From positions 310,001 through 374,000 of the forward strand of contig AP026153.1 in the NCBI GenBank assembly GCA_030295235.1: 64,000 bases of DNA. Direction: 5' to 3'. This DNA comes from Fistulifera solaris. Lineage: Eukaryota. The notes under the pieces are model-generated. The model was not told the DNA's origin. It did not search any database and saw only the letters and a list, made by a program, of their open reading frames with translations. This document shows positions 13,988 through 22,587 of the stretch, piece after piece. The position numbers were made by a program, and so were the translations under genes. The number at the start of each line of letters is the position of its first letter. Position 1 is the stretch's first letter.

Positions 13988-14555
13988 GATCGGCTTTGCG
14001 AGTCTTGAAAATGAAAGTTATACGGCAAGTTTAGCGATTGCAAATATGAACAAGTAGTTTGCAGGAATATTTGAAAAATTTATTGCATCCAAGCAGAGCC
14101 GTCATTGTCGTATCCCGCAAAAGACAATGCGGCGGACGTCGCACACAACAATGATGGATGCGTCGTCGATAGTCACCTCAGTCCGCTCACGTCGACGTAT
14201 ATGTAAGTGTTTGACTATCCTGATCCTTCCTCTTTATCAAAGAGATTCATTGACGAAAAGGTTTTTTGTGCTTTCGAAAAGAATGATACGAAGGTGAATG
14301 TTGGCTCGCTCAAAGGACGAATGAAAGATTGAATGTCGCGTTGCAAAAAGCAAGGATTTCCCCTTGCAAAACGAAAAAAGAACGCAAAGAATTTCGTATC
14401 CCGTTTCGAAGTGAACTCGGGTCTCATGGAACGCGGTACGACGTACGACGGATATTTCAGTACGATGTGGAACACACAAGTTGTCACACTCACGTAAAAG
14501 TTTACATGAAGAATCATCGTACTACCAGGTACGGAACTAAAATCGAAAGTATTAT

Positions 14556-14866
14556 TGTTAGAAAAAGCAAATTCCACTTGACGATTCACGAACTTTATTC
14601 GCGAACCAAAACAATCACTACGCAGCAATCAGCTTATGTAGGGCCGAACTCGATACAATAACTTGTCAATAAAAGGAGAGTAAATAAAACTTCCGTCTAT
14701 TAACTGGATTGTTTCAAGAGAATGAGCTCTTGAAACCACCACGAACTTCGCCCAAGTTACCGTTTTACTTGTTTTGGCATCGGCTCGTTCGTCTTTTCTT
14801 ACGTCAGTTTTCTCCTTTTCAACTTCACTATGGTTAGAGCTCGCTGCAGACTCGCATCTTCCAACA
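14556..14866 (-). repeat. 3' LTR of the copia element (311 bp)
   Basis: TGTTAG...CCAACA. By eye it matches 20774-21089 apart from two small indel sites. Preceded on the sense strand by purine-rich CCGAGGAGCG (putative PPT, 14867-14876). Confidence 0.95.
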
Positions 14867-17800
14867 CGCTCCTCGGTCTGTAGCGAGTCTTCGTCATTCA
14901 AGGAGTTGATGTGAACATGCCCCATGATCACGGACCTTAGTTTCAGAAACAACTTCCCTTGCAACGGCTTCGTGAAAAAATCGGCTATCATCTTTAGAGT
15001 GGGACAGTGTCGAATCGTTATTCCCTCGGCTTTAACCCTGTCTTTGATGAAGAAATATCGAATGTTGATGTGACGAGATTTCGGTCCCGCGGAAGTTCTG
15101 CCGTTTTTCTCGAGCTTAATCGCACTCTCGTTGTCCTGCTCAAAAGCATTATCCTCAATTTTGTGTCCTTGAGCCTCCAAAAACATCTTCATCCATAACG
15201 TGTTCGGTAGATAGTCGCTGGCACCAACAAGCTCGGCCTCAGTGGAACTTTTCGTATTTAATTTTTGCTTTGTCGATTTACAGATCAAACCTCCTGTTCC
15301 GAACGAAATGACGCCACCCATGTGGCTCCTCATGTCAGGATGCACAGCATACGAGGCATCTACCCACGTTCTCATCTTTCCCAAATCGCCGGCTCCCACG
15401 GTAATGCGACAAGTCTAGCGTTCCTTTCAGATATTCCAAGACCCTTTTCAATTTCCGTTCGTCTTCCTCGGTAGCCTTTGAAACGCGGGTGCAAAGGAAA
15501 CAGACCGGTAACAGGATGTCCATTCTGGCGCTGTCGCTACGCATTACAAAAGTTTCGCTGAAACGCTATGGAAAATATCGTTTCGGTTTTTGTCGAGTCT
15601 CGGCGAATTTTCGTCCACTTCAAAAAGGTAGTGCTTAGCGGGAGTGGACGCCCAGTTCTCGAAATTTCCATACCGGACTCCGCAATAGCCTCCTCAAGAT
15701 CACGAGCTCATGGTAATCGTTGCCGTGTTGTTTTCGTTGTAGACTACTTTCATGCCCAAAAATTCGTGTTCCTTCCCGCGCCTGACGGTCATCTTTCCGA
15801 AACTTGACTCGATGTTCGATATGACAGCGGAAACTACTTCAGGATCTTTGTGTGAGACTTTCATGTCGTCGACGTACCAAACAATAGTGCACTGTGATCC
15901 GTTGAAATCGCAATTCGCCACACACTGGTCGTGCGGGTTCAACTCAAAACCCATATCTTGTAGTGTCTCGGAGAACATCTTGTACCATAACAGAGCACTT
16001 TTGACACATCCGTGTAACCCCTTCTTTAGTTGCGTAGATGACCTTTTTTCCATTTTCGAGGCAAACGTATGGCAGATATTTTTCGCTCATCTTACACAGG
16101 ATTTCGACTGCTCTCCCGGTAAACTTTAGAATCACAAAGTCGTCCATCATGGCTTTCAGGTAGGCCCCTGCAACATCGCATATCCCAGCGTCTCTTCCTT
16201 CAAAAACGTCAATTAAGAAAGAAGTAATGAGCGGTCGATAGACACAGTTGGCGAGGCTGTCTCCGATTTGTCGTACAGCGATCTCTGCTTGCTTCCATCG
16301 GCTACGGTTCTACCCTTTAGGCTCCCGTCGCGCTTCTCTTTTAGCAGGTTCAATGCTCTTAGGGCTGCGCGCTTTTCATCATCAGTAAGTTAAACTAGCG
16401 TGTCGAGGGAATGAAAACGGTGAGGTCGTCGAGTTGCTGGAACTCCTGCATGAGGGCATTCTCTGCTTTTTCTCCGTGTTTTCGAAGGCCCGCTTGTTCC
16501 GACATTTGGGTCAGAATGATTGCTACTACCACGCCGGGCGGACCGAGTCAGTAACTACACTTTCTTTTACGCTTTCCGCTGCGTGTTGCAGCATGCAAAA
16601 CACGTTTCTGCTGGGCTTTTCTACGCTGTCGTCGTCTTCCTGTACAGTTTCCACCAAGGGGTCCTCGGACGCTCCTTGGTCCTCAACCAATGAAACGTCG
16701 CCTTCGCCGTGGGCGGTATTCTGAATCATCATTGCTGTCGGCATTTGCGTTGCGGTCCTGCGGTGTATTGGCCGTCGTGGTGTCCGTTTTGGCGATGTCG
16801 AGTGCTACGGGTTCCGCTCCTGAGTCATCCGCTCCTATGTTTGCAACGGGTTCGGACACAATGGGGACTTTAATTTGCGGCTCCATGCTCGCTCCTTGGT
16901 CCACTCCAGAAGGAGATGGGACACTAAAAGGAGACGCCAAGGAAATCGAGTTCATCATCATCAACAGGAAGAAAACTGTCGTCCAGGTCATGGTCAGCGG
17001 CACGGGCGGTGACGGGGGGCATATAGTCTTTGTCGTATTCATCGTCGTCGATGGGCATATCAGGGTCCCATTCGAAAACAAGACCAGACTCTTGAATGAG
17101 TGGTTGATCTTCCGCTTAAAGAGCAAGGGCGTGCACCCGGTCGATGGCGGTGTCGGGAATACGACCAACGCGCTCCCATTGATGGCGGGTAACGCAAGCG
17201 CCGGTGGCGAGTGACATAAAAGCGTAGTCAACGTTGGCGTTGCCGCTGGGGCCAAGGGCAATGGCTCCGAGTGTACGGGAGTGAAGTGTGTTGCTGGGTG
17301 TTGTGGGCTCGAAGATTTGAACGTATTCACCGAACTCCAGGGTCATTTTGTTGTAGTCTGGGAGACCTTCCCCGGTGACGATGGTGTTCGGGCTCATGGT
17401 GTCGGAGATGCCGTCTCTCCGAGGAAATAAATTGAGGCATCGCACGGCTTCCTTAACGAGTTCAATCACCATAAGCTTCGGGAGACGTTTGTGTTGTCAC
17501 AGTGCATCCCATGGACGGTAAAACCACGAGTGTTGTATAAATTGATGGCCCGCTGCGTCTCGCGAAGAATTGTCTTTTTGGAACGGTCAGAGGCGGTGAG
17601 CGTGCGATAACCGATGTTAAGCGAGATGGTGTGAAAAAATGGAATGCCTTGCACAAACAGAAAATCTGTGCACAGGGTGACGTCGCGGTGATGGAGCAAG
17701 ATGGGCGGTGGAATCGGGACTGCCTTGAAAGATGGCACGCGTGGTGCGTCAGCGCCGCAACGAGTTTTTCCTTTAAGCGTTCGCGACATCTGGCCCGTAA

Positions 17801-20324
17801 ATGGCCAGAGCGCTTTGTCGTCATCAGGGCGTGACTGGAGAGTTCGCGAATGAAATTTTTTCGTAAGTACCACTCGAAATCCTCCTCGGAAGGGCGACCA
17901 GCAATTCTGTAAATGCGCCTCGCTTCGTCAGCGGCCTCGATTTGCCGTTTGTTCCACAATTTCTTCTGACCAGCTACAGTTTGGAGCAACGTATACATTT
18001 TAACGGCGGTGCTATCGTTAGGGCTAAAAACGTATAGACCAGAATCCGCTTCCTCAAAACGCATTTCGGAACCGTCTAAACGATGCACGGCGAATGCACG
18101 CGGGAGACTCGGATGTATCCATGGTAACGCGGCACACTCGGCGCACCTTGGCAAGAGACAAAATGTTGGCAATGGACTCCGGATTGTACCACACCGGACC
18201 CAAATTGGGAAAATCACCCACCAGATGGGATGTTTGACTGCCGCCCGTTGGTGATGGCGCTGGTAAGACCTGGTCGCTGGGACGGATGTTGCTGAGCATG
18301 GACGCATTTCGGAACACCGACACAGTTGACTGAGAGTCGAGGAGAATCCAGTTGGGGTCGATCCCGTCGCCAGTGGACGAGTGAGCCAGCACGAAACCGT
18401 GTTGCATCAGCGTGGTGCCGGACACCGTAGTTTGTCCGTTGGGGCATCGATTGGCAAAGTGGCCCGGCTGTTTGCATTTGCTGCAGGTGATGTGGGCAAA
18501 CACTTCGCCGTTCGTGCCGGGGACGACCGTTCCAACTTCGCGCAAAGGTTATTCCATTGACTTCGTTCGGGGCAGAGGCCGGAGTGGGAGAGGTAGTAGG
18601 TGGTGACAGATTTATAATAAGATTGATTCCTGGGTGTTCATGACTGGACAGTCCGTTTGTCTGTCAGGTGTATTTTGGGTGGTTCATGACTGGGAGTGAG
18701 TCATGAAGCTTGAAGTTGAAGTTGAATACCAGTGTGAGGAAGATATGTTTTTGGATTCTTCTCTACACGTCAGTGACCACGTCAGTATTTTGAGAAGGAT
18801 GAGACAGCTTCTCATTTTCATTAGTTTTAGATAATGCTCACAATTTAGAAACCCAGTTGATAATGAACTAGTTGTCATTACCTCGTATCGAGTACGGTCA
18901 GAGATACATTTGCTGTGTGGAATCTCAGAGGGTTGGCACACCTTGTGAGAACGGTTGAGTCGAGTTGGCACACTTGACGAACCAGTGTTAGGAGAAGGCT
19001 GGCACGCCCGGATCTTTATACTGAAGCAGTAAGTACGCGCATTTCGGTTGGCACGCCCGGATTGTACTTATTGACCTATACGGCAGCGGGTGGCCAGTTG
19101 TCGTACTCTTTGTTTGTAGTGTGCAGTGACACGGTCGGGTCATTCGTTCATAGCGAGTTTGGGTGATTTTGACGTCTGTGCGTCGATTGTTGCGTGTGTC
19201 GAGTTACACGTGGCATTGGATTGTGTCGTTTGTACTCTCGCGTGGAGAGTCTCAAATTCTGGGAGCTATCTGTGCGCTCAGAATTTTGTCAGGTGGAGCC
19301 GTTGACTTGTGTGTTGCCTGGGACTGATTTGTGTTCCTATTTTGCTGCTGGGGCGGCTTGGGAGAGATAAGAGGACGGTAGTTCACAAGAAGATTGTAGG
19401 CGGCCGTGGAATCCTTTGGATATTTGTCTTGGCCGAGGGAGAAAAGCGTTTGCCAATTCGTTTCTGAGACTTCCAAAACATGCACCGTCGGGCGTTCGGG
19501 ATAATGGCGAGGGCAAGGGTTTCTTCACGAGCTCGGTTGTATCCGTCAAGATCCGGAACGGCATCGGGATAGTCCCGGTCGCAAAAAATGTACTCCGCGA
19601 ATGTGGCCGCCGTAGCATTCAATGGCCTCAGCCCATCCCCGCAGGTTTTCCACGTAGCTTTCGACCGATTCACTGGCGTGCTGAGAACAATTTAGGAAGT
19701 TGAAACGAGCATCAAGGAGAGACAAACCGATCTTTTTGGTAGCGTCGAATTGCAGCATGATCGACCGGATGTTGGTGAACAGCCACACGCAATCAGTCGT
19801 CTGGGACGCCGTCCGGTACCCGTCGAGTGCTTTCAAACGCACTTTCATGGCTGGGGTGCACTGTTTCCAACCGGCGTTGAACAGGGTCGGCAGACTCACA
19901 TCCTCCAGCTGATCGTAGTGCTTTCCGTAGCGCTTCCACTGGTACTCGTACTGGTCTTGCAGATACTTGGGAGCGTCGGCGGCCGGGGGATCAGGCGGTT
20001 TGAGGCGTGGTGCCTCAATGGTTTCTCCGAAAAGCGGGGCTAGGTCTTCGGGCGTGGGTAATGGTGGAGCGGGCGTAACCCTGCAGCTCCTCCATTGTCC
20101 TGCCGAGCGATGGCCGAGTTTGTCTCTCCTCGGCTGTCTCGAATACGTATCCGTTCATTTCGGCTATCTCACCCTCGTCGCGGTACTCGTGCTTTTGGCT
20201 TTGGAGGCGCCGTCGCCCGTCTTTGCCCTCGGTTCCGATTGCGATTCCGTCCGCCCTCGTCCTGCTGAGGGCGTGCCGTCGGCCGCCACCCTGTTCAGCC
20301 GGTCGGCTTGGTCTCGCTACTCAT
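14714..20324 (-). pseudogene. copia gag-pol polyprotein, broken by many frameshifts and a nested insertion
   Basis: Gag N-terminus (GEIAEMNGYVFE), zinc knuckle CSKCKQPGHFANRC, protease WILLDSQSTVSVF, integrase region (DVTLCTDFLFVQGIPFFHTIS; LEFGEYVQIFE), RT (GCVKSALLWY; WYVDDMKVSH) and RNase H (WVDASYAVHPDMRSH; SSTEAELVG; EQDNESAIKLE; ADFFTKPLQG). Confidence 0.9.
18604..19291. mobile_element. Nested solo LTR (688 bp) of a different retrotransposon inserted in gag
   Basis: Termini TGACAGATTT...AATTTTGTCA. Flanked by the 5-bp duplication GGTGG (18599-18603 and 19292-19296). Removing it rejoins gag as ...KSTAPP-TTSPTPASAPNEVNGITFA. Confidence 0.85.
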
Positions 20325-20698
20325 GGTTTGTTTGGGGCTCAGGTGTGCGATGCGATATGTTGTTCGGTGCGCGACAGACTTCGAGGTTTAACTCGTTTCG
20401 CAGGTATACACGCGTGCGAGTGATGCGCGTCACAACACCGCTGACGATACTGCTCGATGGTTTGAGCGTTCCAGGAACCAGTCCAGGTGGCAGGTCGATT
20501 CACTTGGTTGTCAATTCGGACGTGGTCTCCAATCTCGAATACAAAAACCTCTTCAAAATCCCCCGGACTCGTCAGCTCCTTGCGTGCGGCGAGCATTGTT
20601 GATTCCCTCAACTTTCGCGAATTAAAAACGCTTTCTCGTAGTCGTAGGCTCTGCAATTCTTTGATTATGGCAGCAATTAAGCCGTCGTCGTCTTGCAT
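20317..20698 (-). CDS. Extra small ORF upstream of gag (helical N-half, SH3/KOW-like C-half), one frameshift near 20440
   Basis: Reads MQDDDGLIAAIIKELQSLRLRE...FEIGDHVRIDNQVNRP..., then in the adjacent frame GVVTRITRTRVYLRNELNLEVCRAPNNISHRTPEPQTNHE*. Its end overlaps the putative gag ATG (CATGAGTAG). Confidence 0.6.
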
Positions 20699-20759
20699 CC
20701 GTGTAGGGCGACAACAGCGATCGAAAACAGGTTCAAAACAGTAGAGAAAAATGATATTT

Positions 20760-20773
20760 TTCTCTTGAAACAA
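20760..20773 (-). promoter_or_regulatory. Primer-binding-site position: TTGTTTCAAGAGAA, complementary to the element's own LTR
   Basis: Directly abuts the 5' LTR end. Does not start with TGG. Exact reverse complement of 20928-20941 within the LTR. Confidence 0.75.
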
Positions 20774-21089
20774 TGTTAGAAAAAGCAAATTCCACTTGAC
20801 GATTCACGAACTTTATTCAGCGAACCAAAACAATCACTACGCAGCAATCAGCTTATGTAGGGCCGAACTCGATACAATAACTTGTCAATAAAAGGAGAGT
20901 AAATAAAACTTCCGTCTATTAACTGGATTGTTTCAAGAGAATGAGCTCTTGAAACCACCACGAACAACGCTCGCCCAAGTTACCGTTTTACTTGTTTTGG
21001 CATCGGCTCGTTCGTCTTTTCTTACGTCAGTTTTCTCCTTTTCAACTTCACTATGGTTAGAGCTCGCTGCAGACTCGCATCTTCCAACA
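20774..21089 (-). repeat. 5' LTR of the copia element (316 bp)
   Basis: TGTTAG...CCAACA followed by TSD ATTAT. Contains the hairpin GTTTCAAGAG-6nt-CTCTTGAAAC (20930-20955). Confidence 0.95.
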
Positions 21090-22587
21090 ATTATGCCCTT
21101 CAAGCCTTCAAGATACTACGTACCAAACGTTAAATACCAAAAATCCTGCTTGAAGTATTACGACTTTACTTAAGACTTATGACCTGTGCCCTGTGCAAGA
21201 TGTCTTTTTGTCTTGAGAGGTCATAAGACCAACAAAAAACAAACTAGCTTATGGCTTATGGGCACCTTTTTGAAGAAGTCGAGGCAAGTCGGCAAGCGCC
21301 GGCAACAAGAAGGAAAGCTCACGAGGGTTATTACTTGTACCTGGTACAGGTACAGCTGGTGTCCGATCGTCTCAACTCCATGTAGCCCTCGTAGAAGCCT
21401 ACCACAACGGAAAAAATATGATTTGAGTACCGGTCCAAAAACTCCTCCAAACTCTTTTTATCGCGACAAATTTTGTGTTGTTTTGACGATGCCGATCATT
21501 CCATTCGATCACTGATAACTCGTTCTAAACATCTCACCTCGTGGATCGAAACACTTATACTGTGTAACTTTTAATTTCGCGTCGAACGGTATAACTTGAT
21601 CCACGAGATCAGATCATGACGGACTTCAAAAACATCGCAAGAACAAGGCACTCACTTGTTGGTCAAGTTGAATTGGACGATTATCATGGATACGTTGATC
21701 TGTGACGAAATTTTCTTTCCGTTTCTTATCAAATACAGCCCATTTTCGGCAATTACGTTCAAGAGGGACTCTAGACGTGCCAACTTCGTCCGAGTAATCC
21801 TGTTCGAAGTCCCTCATTAAATGCCTCATGTTGGTCTTCCGGAAGTTTACCGTAATCAAATCAAGGTATTATGACCAAATAAAGAAAGCAAGCGCGCGGT
21901 TCATTATAACTTCGGCAAGCTCTTATGAAGAGAGGACTTGGGGCGATGGCAATCACGCAGACGACCTCGAAAAGATAGTAAAGAAGTTAAAGACTTCCGC
22001 TGTGTCATGAATTTTGACGGGTGTTTCGTCAGGGCAGTGGTGAATACAAAGCGCAAATAATCTTTGATGAGAAAGTAGCATGAGATATCAAATGAGTGGA
22101 GCGATTACCAGCCATCAGATAGAGAATTTGACGAGGAACTGGCATAACTAATAATTTTATATACTAATTTGTCAATATTTCCATCGTGTTTGCTTACTGG
22201 TGATAGAGTTCTGCTTCAGACTGAGTAAACTATTAAATATAATTATGAACAATGATGTATTTTAGTCAAACAAACCTATACAAGTGGGAATCGTCGCCTG
22301 CATAACATAGTTAACATGACTCATGACTGACTAGTGACTGAGGCGAAAATCTAGGTTAATCTCATTTCAAGGTCAAGAAAACACGAAATCGAACCAGCTA
22401 ACCGTAGATTATATTCCTACATGTGTAAGATTGTCAACAGAAGGAATAAAATGTAATTGAAATTGAGTTCATGATTATTCTTTCTTAGATTCTTTACTTT
22501 CAATTTACTCCTACGGAGAAATGGGACGTAGAAAATGTACTACACGTAAAAAAAGACACCAGCTGTATTTGAATGAATGATGAATCA

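Follow-up and report, generated by a model that had tools for sequence, protein, structure and literature searches.

A copia lineage of diatoms very probably self-primes its reverse transcription, judging from the sequence of its members. We analysed a 64,000-nt stretch of the Fistulifera solaris genome, referred to here as the window, which carries one such element. The site that directly follows its 5′ LTR is, in our estimation with good likelihood, the primer-binding site (PBS) of a self-primed Ty1/copia retrotransposon. Four observations can be made directly: the PBS is complementary to a segment inside the LTR, it sits exactly at the LTR edge, the arrangement is kept across a clade while its sequences co-vary, and an initiator-like (Inr-like) motif marks a fixed outer edge of the duplex.

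The element lies on the minus strand of the window and consists of the following parts.

14556..21089, minus strand: whole LTR retrotransposon of the Ty1/copia type, 6534 nt (LTR pair, target duplication, Pfam matches)
20774..21089, minus strand: 5′ LTR, 316 nt, TGTTGG...TCTAACA (LTR-LTR alignment)
14556..14866, minus strand: 3′ LTR, 311 nt, shorter than the 5′ LTR by a 4-nt and a 1-nt deletion (alignment)
21090..21094 (left copy) and 14551-14555 (right copy), minus strand: target-site duplication ATAAT, 5 bp (read from the flanks)
14867..14874, minus strand: polypurine tract, purine-rich GAGGAGCG, abutting the 3′ LTR (sequence)
18438..18488, minus strand: gag zinc knuckle, zf-CCHC (Pfam, E 1.3e-05)
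15730..16050, minus strand: fragment of a copia-type reverse transcriptase, RVT_2 (Pfam, E 7.9e-10)
20812..20817, minus strand: possible poly(A) signal AATAAA, about 40 nt before the LTR end (sequence, motif scan)

Both LTRs have TG..CA ends, and their alignment shows three differences, namely an indel of 4 nt, one of 1 nt and a substitution. If the AATAAA at 20812..20817 acts as a poly(A) signal, which is possible, it would give the element a long R and a short U5.

To assign the element, we searched with its coding parts and with those of its relatives. The coding region of the window copy is split into many short broken frames. The RNase H-proximal frame used as a query matched 1639 proteins at E <= 0.001, many of which are polyproteins of 1600-1800 residues, and the closest named homologues of the element are copia polyproteins from the diatoms Fragilaria crotonensis and Fistulifera solaris. 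Full-length relatives match RVT_2 at E 1e-16 to 1e-19. Searches with Pfam and with PDB profiles detected no integrase in the polyproteins of the relatives. The segment between gag and the reverse transcriptase (RT) of one relative (L001), about 430 residues upstream of YVDD, was modelled with a pLDDT of 83.7, and the model matches retroviral integrases and intasomes (RSV, PFV, HIV) with a Foldseek E of about 3e-08. A stretch homologous to this segment is recognisable in the window in frame 17465-18406. Since the integrase fold lies upstream of RT in the relatives, the gene order gag-integrase-RT-RNase H is, on this modelled placement, the order of copia elements. The assignment to Ty1/copia made in an earlier reading of the window from its letters alone (the sequence-only reading) is thereby upheld by two features, the RVT_2 reverse transcriptase and the integrase fold upstream of RT in the relatives.

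A separate observation concerns the frames of the relatives. Many of them (L001, L024, L039, L045, L060, L069, L077 and alignment A1) encode gag and pol together in a single unbroken frame of 1600-1890 residues, whose start is no more than tens of bases from the PBS and whose stop lies inside the 3′ LTR. The integrase of these single-frame relatives is invisible to Pfam and is recognised by its fold alone.

The window copy itself is defective and cannot be active, since another sequence is nested in it, many of its frames are broken and its 3′ LTR lacks 4 nt. The insertion lies within gag.

18604..19291, no strand assigned: nested insertion, 688 nt, TGACAG...TTGTCA, with GGTGG on both flanks, interrupting gag (a contig without it, and depth)

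A public contig joins position 18597 to 19291 and so skips 693 nt. In public runs the nested stretch reaches about tenfold the depth of the rest of the element, with loose ends at 18603/18604 and 19291/19292, and it is probably the solo LTR of another, more abundant family. When public contigs at single-copy depth were compared with the element (14837-20787), dozens of 1-3-nt indels were found, as against none in the flanks. Part of the element's frameshifts may be assembly errors or belong to another allele; the nested insertion and the 4-nt deletion in the 3′ LTR stand whether or not this is the case. Of four public runs, all consisting of contigs, two cover the flanks at the depth of the element and look like DNA. 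Elsewhere in the window, at about 23500-48100, there are four tandem paralogous units of about 5.7-7.3 kb, each with long arrays of a 99-nt repeat whose copies share 60-95% identity. The arrangement resembles a tandem gene family with 33-residue repeats.

On the minus strand the 5′ LTR ends with ...TTTTTCTAACA at 20774 and is followed by TTGTTTCAAGAGAA at 20773-20760. This sequence is the exact complement of TTCTCTTGAAACAA at 20941-20928, inside the same LTR. A 20774, the final base of the LTR, pairs with T 20927 and brings the duplex to 15 bp, and the pairing extends no further on either side. The two arms are as follows.

20760..20774, minus strand: primer-binding site ATTGTTTCAAGAGAA, whose first base is the last LTR base, without TGG (sequence)
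20927..20941, minus strand, with a 3′ LTR copy at 14708-14722: proposed self-primer TTCTCTTGAAACAAT, inferred start of R (PBS complement, co-variation)

The sequence-only reading had described a 14-nt exact complement in the LTR, a fifteenth pair through the last LTR base and the lack of a TGG at the PBS, and all of these are borne out. When one mismatch at most was allowed, the 15-mer occurred at three sites in the 64-kb window, namely both LTR copies and, on the opposite strand, the PBS; 100 dinucleotide shuffles of the window contained no match. No tRNA gene was found within the window by ARAGORN. The RNA from 20941 to 20750 folds at -52.8 kcal/mol with a z-score of -4.5 (0 of 200 shuffles were as stable), and the primer-PBS helix closes this fold.

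We then turned to related elements, searching metagenome contigs with aligned RT/RNase H sequences as the query. The search confirmed 394 stretches, and 79 loci with 42-67% identity were kept. Many of these contigs are circularly permuted, running from pol through one LTR and the PBS into gag, and this order is the assembler's product from a multi-copy element. Within the 79 loci we counted 62 inverted pairs of at least 11 nt with arms 60-450 nt apart, compared with 21.8 in shuffles. Pairs were retained when the downstream arm began at or just after the LTR-terminal ..ACA (..CA), and four chance-like pairs (second pairs in L028 and L039, and those of L064 and L073) were left out by inspection, as was the tandem duplicate L063. 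With this selection 34 loci and the window keep a pair of 11-17 nt, and its length is at least 14 nt in 33 of the 35. The same arrangement was present in four further loci, two with short loops (L048, L079) and two on permuted contigs (L024, L077) that hold primer and PBS at opposite ends. The LTR-complementary PBS geometry is thus found in 38 of the 79 related loci. That these loci share the geometry of the window while their sequences co-vary strongly supports the reading proposed from the sequence alone, self-priming in the manner of the yeast element Tf1. One relative (L069) is a complete element with both LTRs and a target duplication, and it has the same geometry. The R-U5 loop between the arms spans about 150 nt in the window and 27-205 nt, mostly 95-130 nt, in the relatives.

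Of the other 41 loci, gag is visible in only 8, and the contigs of 4 of these include the LTR-gag border or sequence near it. The complement is present in L051, where a T run carries a 1-nt indel, and L001 has a PBS sequence of the family type on a contig without the primer part of the LTR. No primer-PBS complement was detected in the remaining two of these four, L043 and L057. One sub-family (L009:883-952, L011:970-1039, L013:1010-1073, L053:895-964) displays a perfect 10-13-bp hairpin, TCCGCTACCTCCA / TGGAGGTAGCGGA, that straddles the polypurine tract and the LTR start, and these contigs show no clear self-primer/PBS pair. In the otherwise complete L039 (L039:1-240) the 5′ LTR is truncated only a few bases from the primer start, and the sequence in front of it is unrelated; this could reflect an aberrant reverse-transcription product, a deletion or an assembly chimera. 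This break was dropped as evidence for the start site, as it lies inside the primer and not at its first base and is a single case.

Next, we analysed how primer and PBS vary together. The 35 sources contain 33 distinct primer sequences. When each primer was compared with its own PBS, 14 of 14 positions matched in 35 of 37 sources, against a mean of 6.4 of 14 across loci. Counted from the inner end of the duplex, offsets 0-13 form Watson-Crick pairs in 34-35 of the 35 sources, a perfection that is partly built in inside the seed, as the loci for the co-variation counts were chosen by a perfect 11-nt seed. Free of this bias are the extension to 14-15 nt (offset 14 is paired in 29 of 35), the position and the fixed edges. 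Outside the duplex, pairing drops to the background level, with 11 of 35 at the next offset.

Alignment A3 comprises 26 sequences with both arms in register; it leaves out two sequences of alignment A2 that were misaligned by MAFFT, the sources whose register is 12 or 14 nt and the four loci with short loops or on permuted contigs. Subject to the same seed choice, all 390 cells of A3 are paired and none of them is a G-U pair. Changes on both sides were found in 14 of the 15 pairs, amounting to 131 two-sided cells and no one-sided cell. None of 500 shuffles reached the score of A3, and controls in which the arms were slid pair at 36-47%. The RNAalifold consensus is the primer-PBS helix alone. 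At the inner edge, A3 has an invariant T15 together with a nearly invariant A14 and C16. Compensatory co-variation between the PBS and the LTR motif, which the sequence-only reading had suggested looking for in related elements, is therefore present.

RNA stems that are kept only by structural selection normally tolerate G-U pairs. In retroviral replication as usually described, the primer still attached to the minus-strand DNA is copied into plus-strand strong-stop DNA, which regenerates the PBS. The lack of G-U pairs and of one-sided changes fits what would be expected if the PBS is copied from the primer. In addition, 33 different PBS/primer sequences mean that one shared host tRNA or tRNA half cannot match them all, and on this diversity of aligned sites a single shared tRNA primer is ruled out. 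A tRNA fragment that matches the PBS of the window alone would be excluded solely via the PBS diversity in the relatives.

A small hairpin, GGATTAATTGTCC / AGACTAAAGGTCT, recurs in the R-U5 loop of a subset of the sequences (A3 columns about 216-229, e.g. L017, L018, L020, L015) and shows apparent compensatory changes. By analogy, it might correspond to the U5-IR stem-loop of Tf1, a structure that Tf1 needs.

The outer edge of the duplex was examined together with the bases that precede it.

20942..20945, minus strand: Inr-like motif CTCA, directly upstream of the primer (published motif comparison and relatives)

In 29 of 39 sources the duplex edge falls exactly after YYA-H-W, mostly CTCA. 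Six more sources have the edge 1-2 nt earlier, as chance extension would give. An Inr-like motif TCAH(+1)W has been proposed for diatoms, and CAY(+1)A is cited for the mapped starts of FCP genes in the same article (PMC4686930). In oomycetes the INR is YCAYTYY, most commonly TCATTCT, and the sections of that report dealing with the diatom T. pseudonana describe it as being without the oomycete INR+FPR and FPR motifs (PMC3599244). The position of CTCA at the duplex edge fits the diatom motif TCAH(+1)W, and it agrees with the transcript start at about 20941-20943 that the sequence-only reading had predicted. The TCATT before the primer, to which the sequence-only reading had pointed as initiator-like, was right in so far as an Inr-like motif (CTCA) is there, but its TT already forms the first two primer bases.

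A primer that reached further 5′ would have lengthened the PBS by copying, and the edge is instead sharp. This sharp edge argues for a 5′ end of the primer, and so probably for a transcript start, at 20941 (the first paired base) or 20942. A 150-nt contig ending at 20940 was considered as a hint to the start and rejected, being explained by the 4-nt LTR indel and the 31-mer overlap of the assembly graph. Contig ends were also inspected for poly(A) tails as a sign of RNA origin; just two A-runs, at contig starts, came up, and they were uninformative.

Two further features lie at or near the proposed start.

20946..20955, minus strand: GTTTCAAGAG, upstream arm of a 10-bp hairpin, in the inferred U3 (pairs with 20930-20939 inside the primer)
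20933..20935, minus strand: pol-frame stop TGA in the 5′ LTR copy (...VTWASVVRGGFKSSFS followed by the stop), inside the primer (sequence)

GTTTCAAGAG is a second partner of the same LTR motif that pairs with the PBS and is absent from the sequence-only reading. A stem of at least 8 contiguous bp across the proposed start was detected in 19 of 38 sources, compared with 115 of 1406 cross-locus controls (8%). In the hairpin of the relatives, bases upstream of the start pair with CTCA and/or with the first primer bases. A first hairpin test took the complements of the primer itself alone and found few; it was replaced by this wider test. If the start lies between the two arms, only the 3′ LTR copy in the RNA would form the hairpin, and if transcription starts upstream, the hairpin would stand at the RNA 5′ end. 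Speculatively, the hairpin may serve to mask the redundant primer copy in the 3′ LTR.

The open frame of pol continues across the polypurine tract and into the LTR. The tract is read as EER in this frame, and EERVG is kept in the protein alignment of the relatives, whose C-terminal consensus is EERVG...VTWADVV. Relatives with long frames have their stop at about -52 to +20 nt from the primer start. As the pol frame runs into the LTR and stops near the primer, the inferred U3 is, as far as the predicted frames tell, almost entirely coding.

From these data we infer a start site, a cleavage and a priming step, which together would work as follows. RNA polymerase II would start in the LTR right after CTCA, at about 20941. 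The first 15 nt of the transcript would fold back on the sequence that begins with the last LTR base, closing the R-U5 loop. The RNase H of the element would then cut at the 3′ end of the paired segment, beside the invariant T15, and the freed 3′-OH would prime minus-strand strong-stop DNA, as for Tf1. Finally, plus-strand synthesis would copy the RNA primer and rewrite the PBS of each new copy. Such rewriting would explain why the pairing is perfect, free of G-U and sharply limited at the transcript 5′ end.

The primer could also derive from the element's own LTR without being the 5′ end of the RNA, either because transcription starts upstream or because the primer is supplied in trans by the 3′ copy or another transcript. 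Priming needs the 3′-OH of the primer alone and not its 5′ end, which leaves room for this version, and the co-varying hairpin, with its 5′ arm before CTCA (present in 19 of 38 sources and in 8% of cross-locus controls), needs both arms in RNA or DNA. The fully transcribed 3′ LTR copy, however, accounts for the hairpin just as well, and the complementarity ends at a fixed point after the Inr-like motif in 29 of 39 sources, with 11 of 35 paired at the next offset. We therefore regard this version as unlikely. Half-tRNA priming is known in several Ty1/copia lineages (PMC6317226), and the duplex could be a leader stem that serves, for example, packaging, dimerisation or presentation of another site, with a host tRNA or tRNA fragment acting as the primer as in copia, Ty5, Osser and Bianca. 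Such a stem would occupy the very U5-adjacent spot at which the primer must bind and which is without TGG. Moreover, the 33 sequences among 35 sources cannot all fit one tRNA, and neither a G-U pair nor a one-sided change occurs in 390 cells; the lack of a tRNA gene in the window adds little weight. Taken together, a leader stem with tRNA priming seems to us quite improbable.

Chance inverted repeats or assembly artefacts also have to be weighed, given that 11-nt inverted pairs are common by chance (21.8 per shuffled locus set) and that the metagenome contigs are circularly permuted assemblies. Against this stand the 15-mer without a match in 100 shuffles of the window, the recurrence of the geometry in 38 loci on many contigs, its presence in complete elements (L069, for example) that have two LTRs and a target duplication, and the two public runs that cover the LTR edges of the window. 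These data, with the co-variation, refute an origin by chance or artefact.

In Tf1/Tf2 of Schizosaccharomyces pombe and in Tj1, as in the diatom element, the PBS after the 5′ LTR complements a sequence internal to the LTR that is taken to be the 5′ end of the mRNA, without use of a tRNA. In Tf1 it is the first 11 nt of the RNA that form the duplex with the PBS, and RNase H cleaves between nt 11 and 12 (PMC7175516); Tj1 of S. japonicus has the same self-priming arrangement as Tf1 (PMC4600332). The Tf1/sushi group belongs to Ty3/gypsy and has the gypsy gene order, whereas the diatom element is a copia element. The primer is 11 nt long in Tf1/Tj1 as compared with 14-15 nt in the diatom clade. Unlike Tf1/Tj1, the diatom clade has a pol frame that runs through U3 and ends at or in the primer, as well as the extra co-varying hairpin across the proposed start. 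RNase H cleavage has been demonstrated for Tf1, while the diatom element is known from sequence alone.

Within Ty1/copia, self-priming was predicted for the plant TAR lineage by Neumann et al., on the basis of at least 10 bp of complementarity between the 5′ LTR and the region 0-5 bp after the LTR (PMC6317226). The same article credits Capy 2005 with the earlier proposal of self-priming for Houba and Osr-1 (PMC6317226). The sequence-only reading knew of no demonstrated copia case. With TAR there is a copia precedent, albeit a predicted one, and as far as that article says no copia case has been proved by experiment (PMC6317226). TAR, which includes Houba and Osr-1, resembles the diatom clade in being copia with an LTR-complementary PBS, and the hosts are land plants in the former and diatoms in the latter. 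Priming by a half-tRNA is described for Copia, Ty5, Osser, Bryco and Bianca, whose PBS is without the TGG for the tRNA 3′ end (PMC6317226). Within each of these lineages the PBS is conserved and corresponds to an internal stretch of tRNA-Met or tRNA-Ile, whereas the PBS of the diatom clade varies between elements and is in every case matched to the LTR of its own element. Copia elements of the fungal GalEa type are described as having a ‘conserved hairpin site’, an unusual structure where the PBS would be, with no classical PBS and no complementary LTR sequence that could be found (PMC5445492). The GalEa site is a local palindrome, while the partner of the diatom PBS lies in the LTR.

The literature that we searched contained no report of self-priming in diatom elements, and the main text of the paper that defined the CoDi groups of diatoms yielded no passage on PBS, tRNA or priming (Maumus 2009, PMC2806351). 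The diatom case is not the first for copia, as self-priming had already been predicted for plant TAR. What is new here is the clade-wide co-variation, the pol frame that ends at the primer and the second co-varying hairpin across the proposed start. To our knowledge, experimental demonstration of self-priming is confined to the Tf1/sushi branch of gypsy elements, and for copia there is so far a prediction for one plant lineage.

A wider picture can be drawn, which we put forward tentatively and consider rather doubtful as a whole. A widespread environmental clade of diatom copia elements would self-prime, with an origin independent of the fungal and vertebrate Tf1/sushi elements and of plant TAR; the co-varying U3/R hairpin, a feature described for neither of these groups, would hide the 3′ primer copy; pol would stop at or in the primer, leaving U3 almost all coding; and each PBS would record the transcript start of its own element, because it is rewritten from the primer in every cycle.

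If true, a second self-priming copia lineage, in stramenopile algae, would mean that independence from tRNA either arises repeatedly or has a greater age than assumed. An ancestor of LTR elements that was itself self-priming has been proposed (PMC3601003). In practical terms, LTR-element finders that rely on a PBS matching a tRNA will overlook or misjudge these diatom elements. Host defences based on tRNA-fragment mimicry of the PBS would be ineffective against them. With its dozens of natural compensatory primer/PBS variants, the clade provides unusually clean material on primer choice and cutting.
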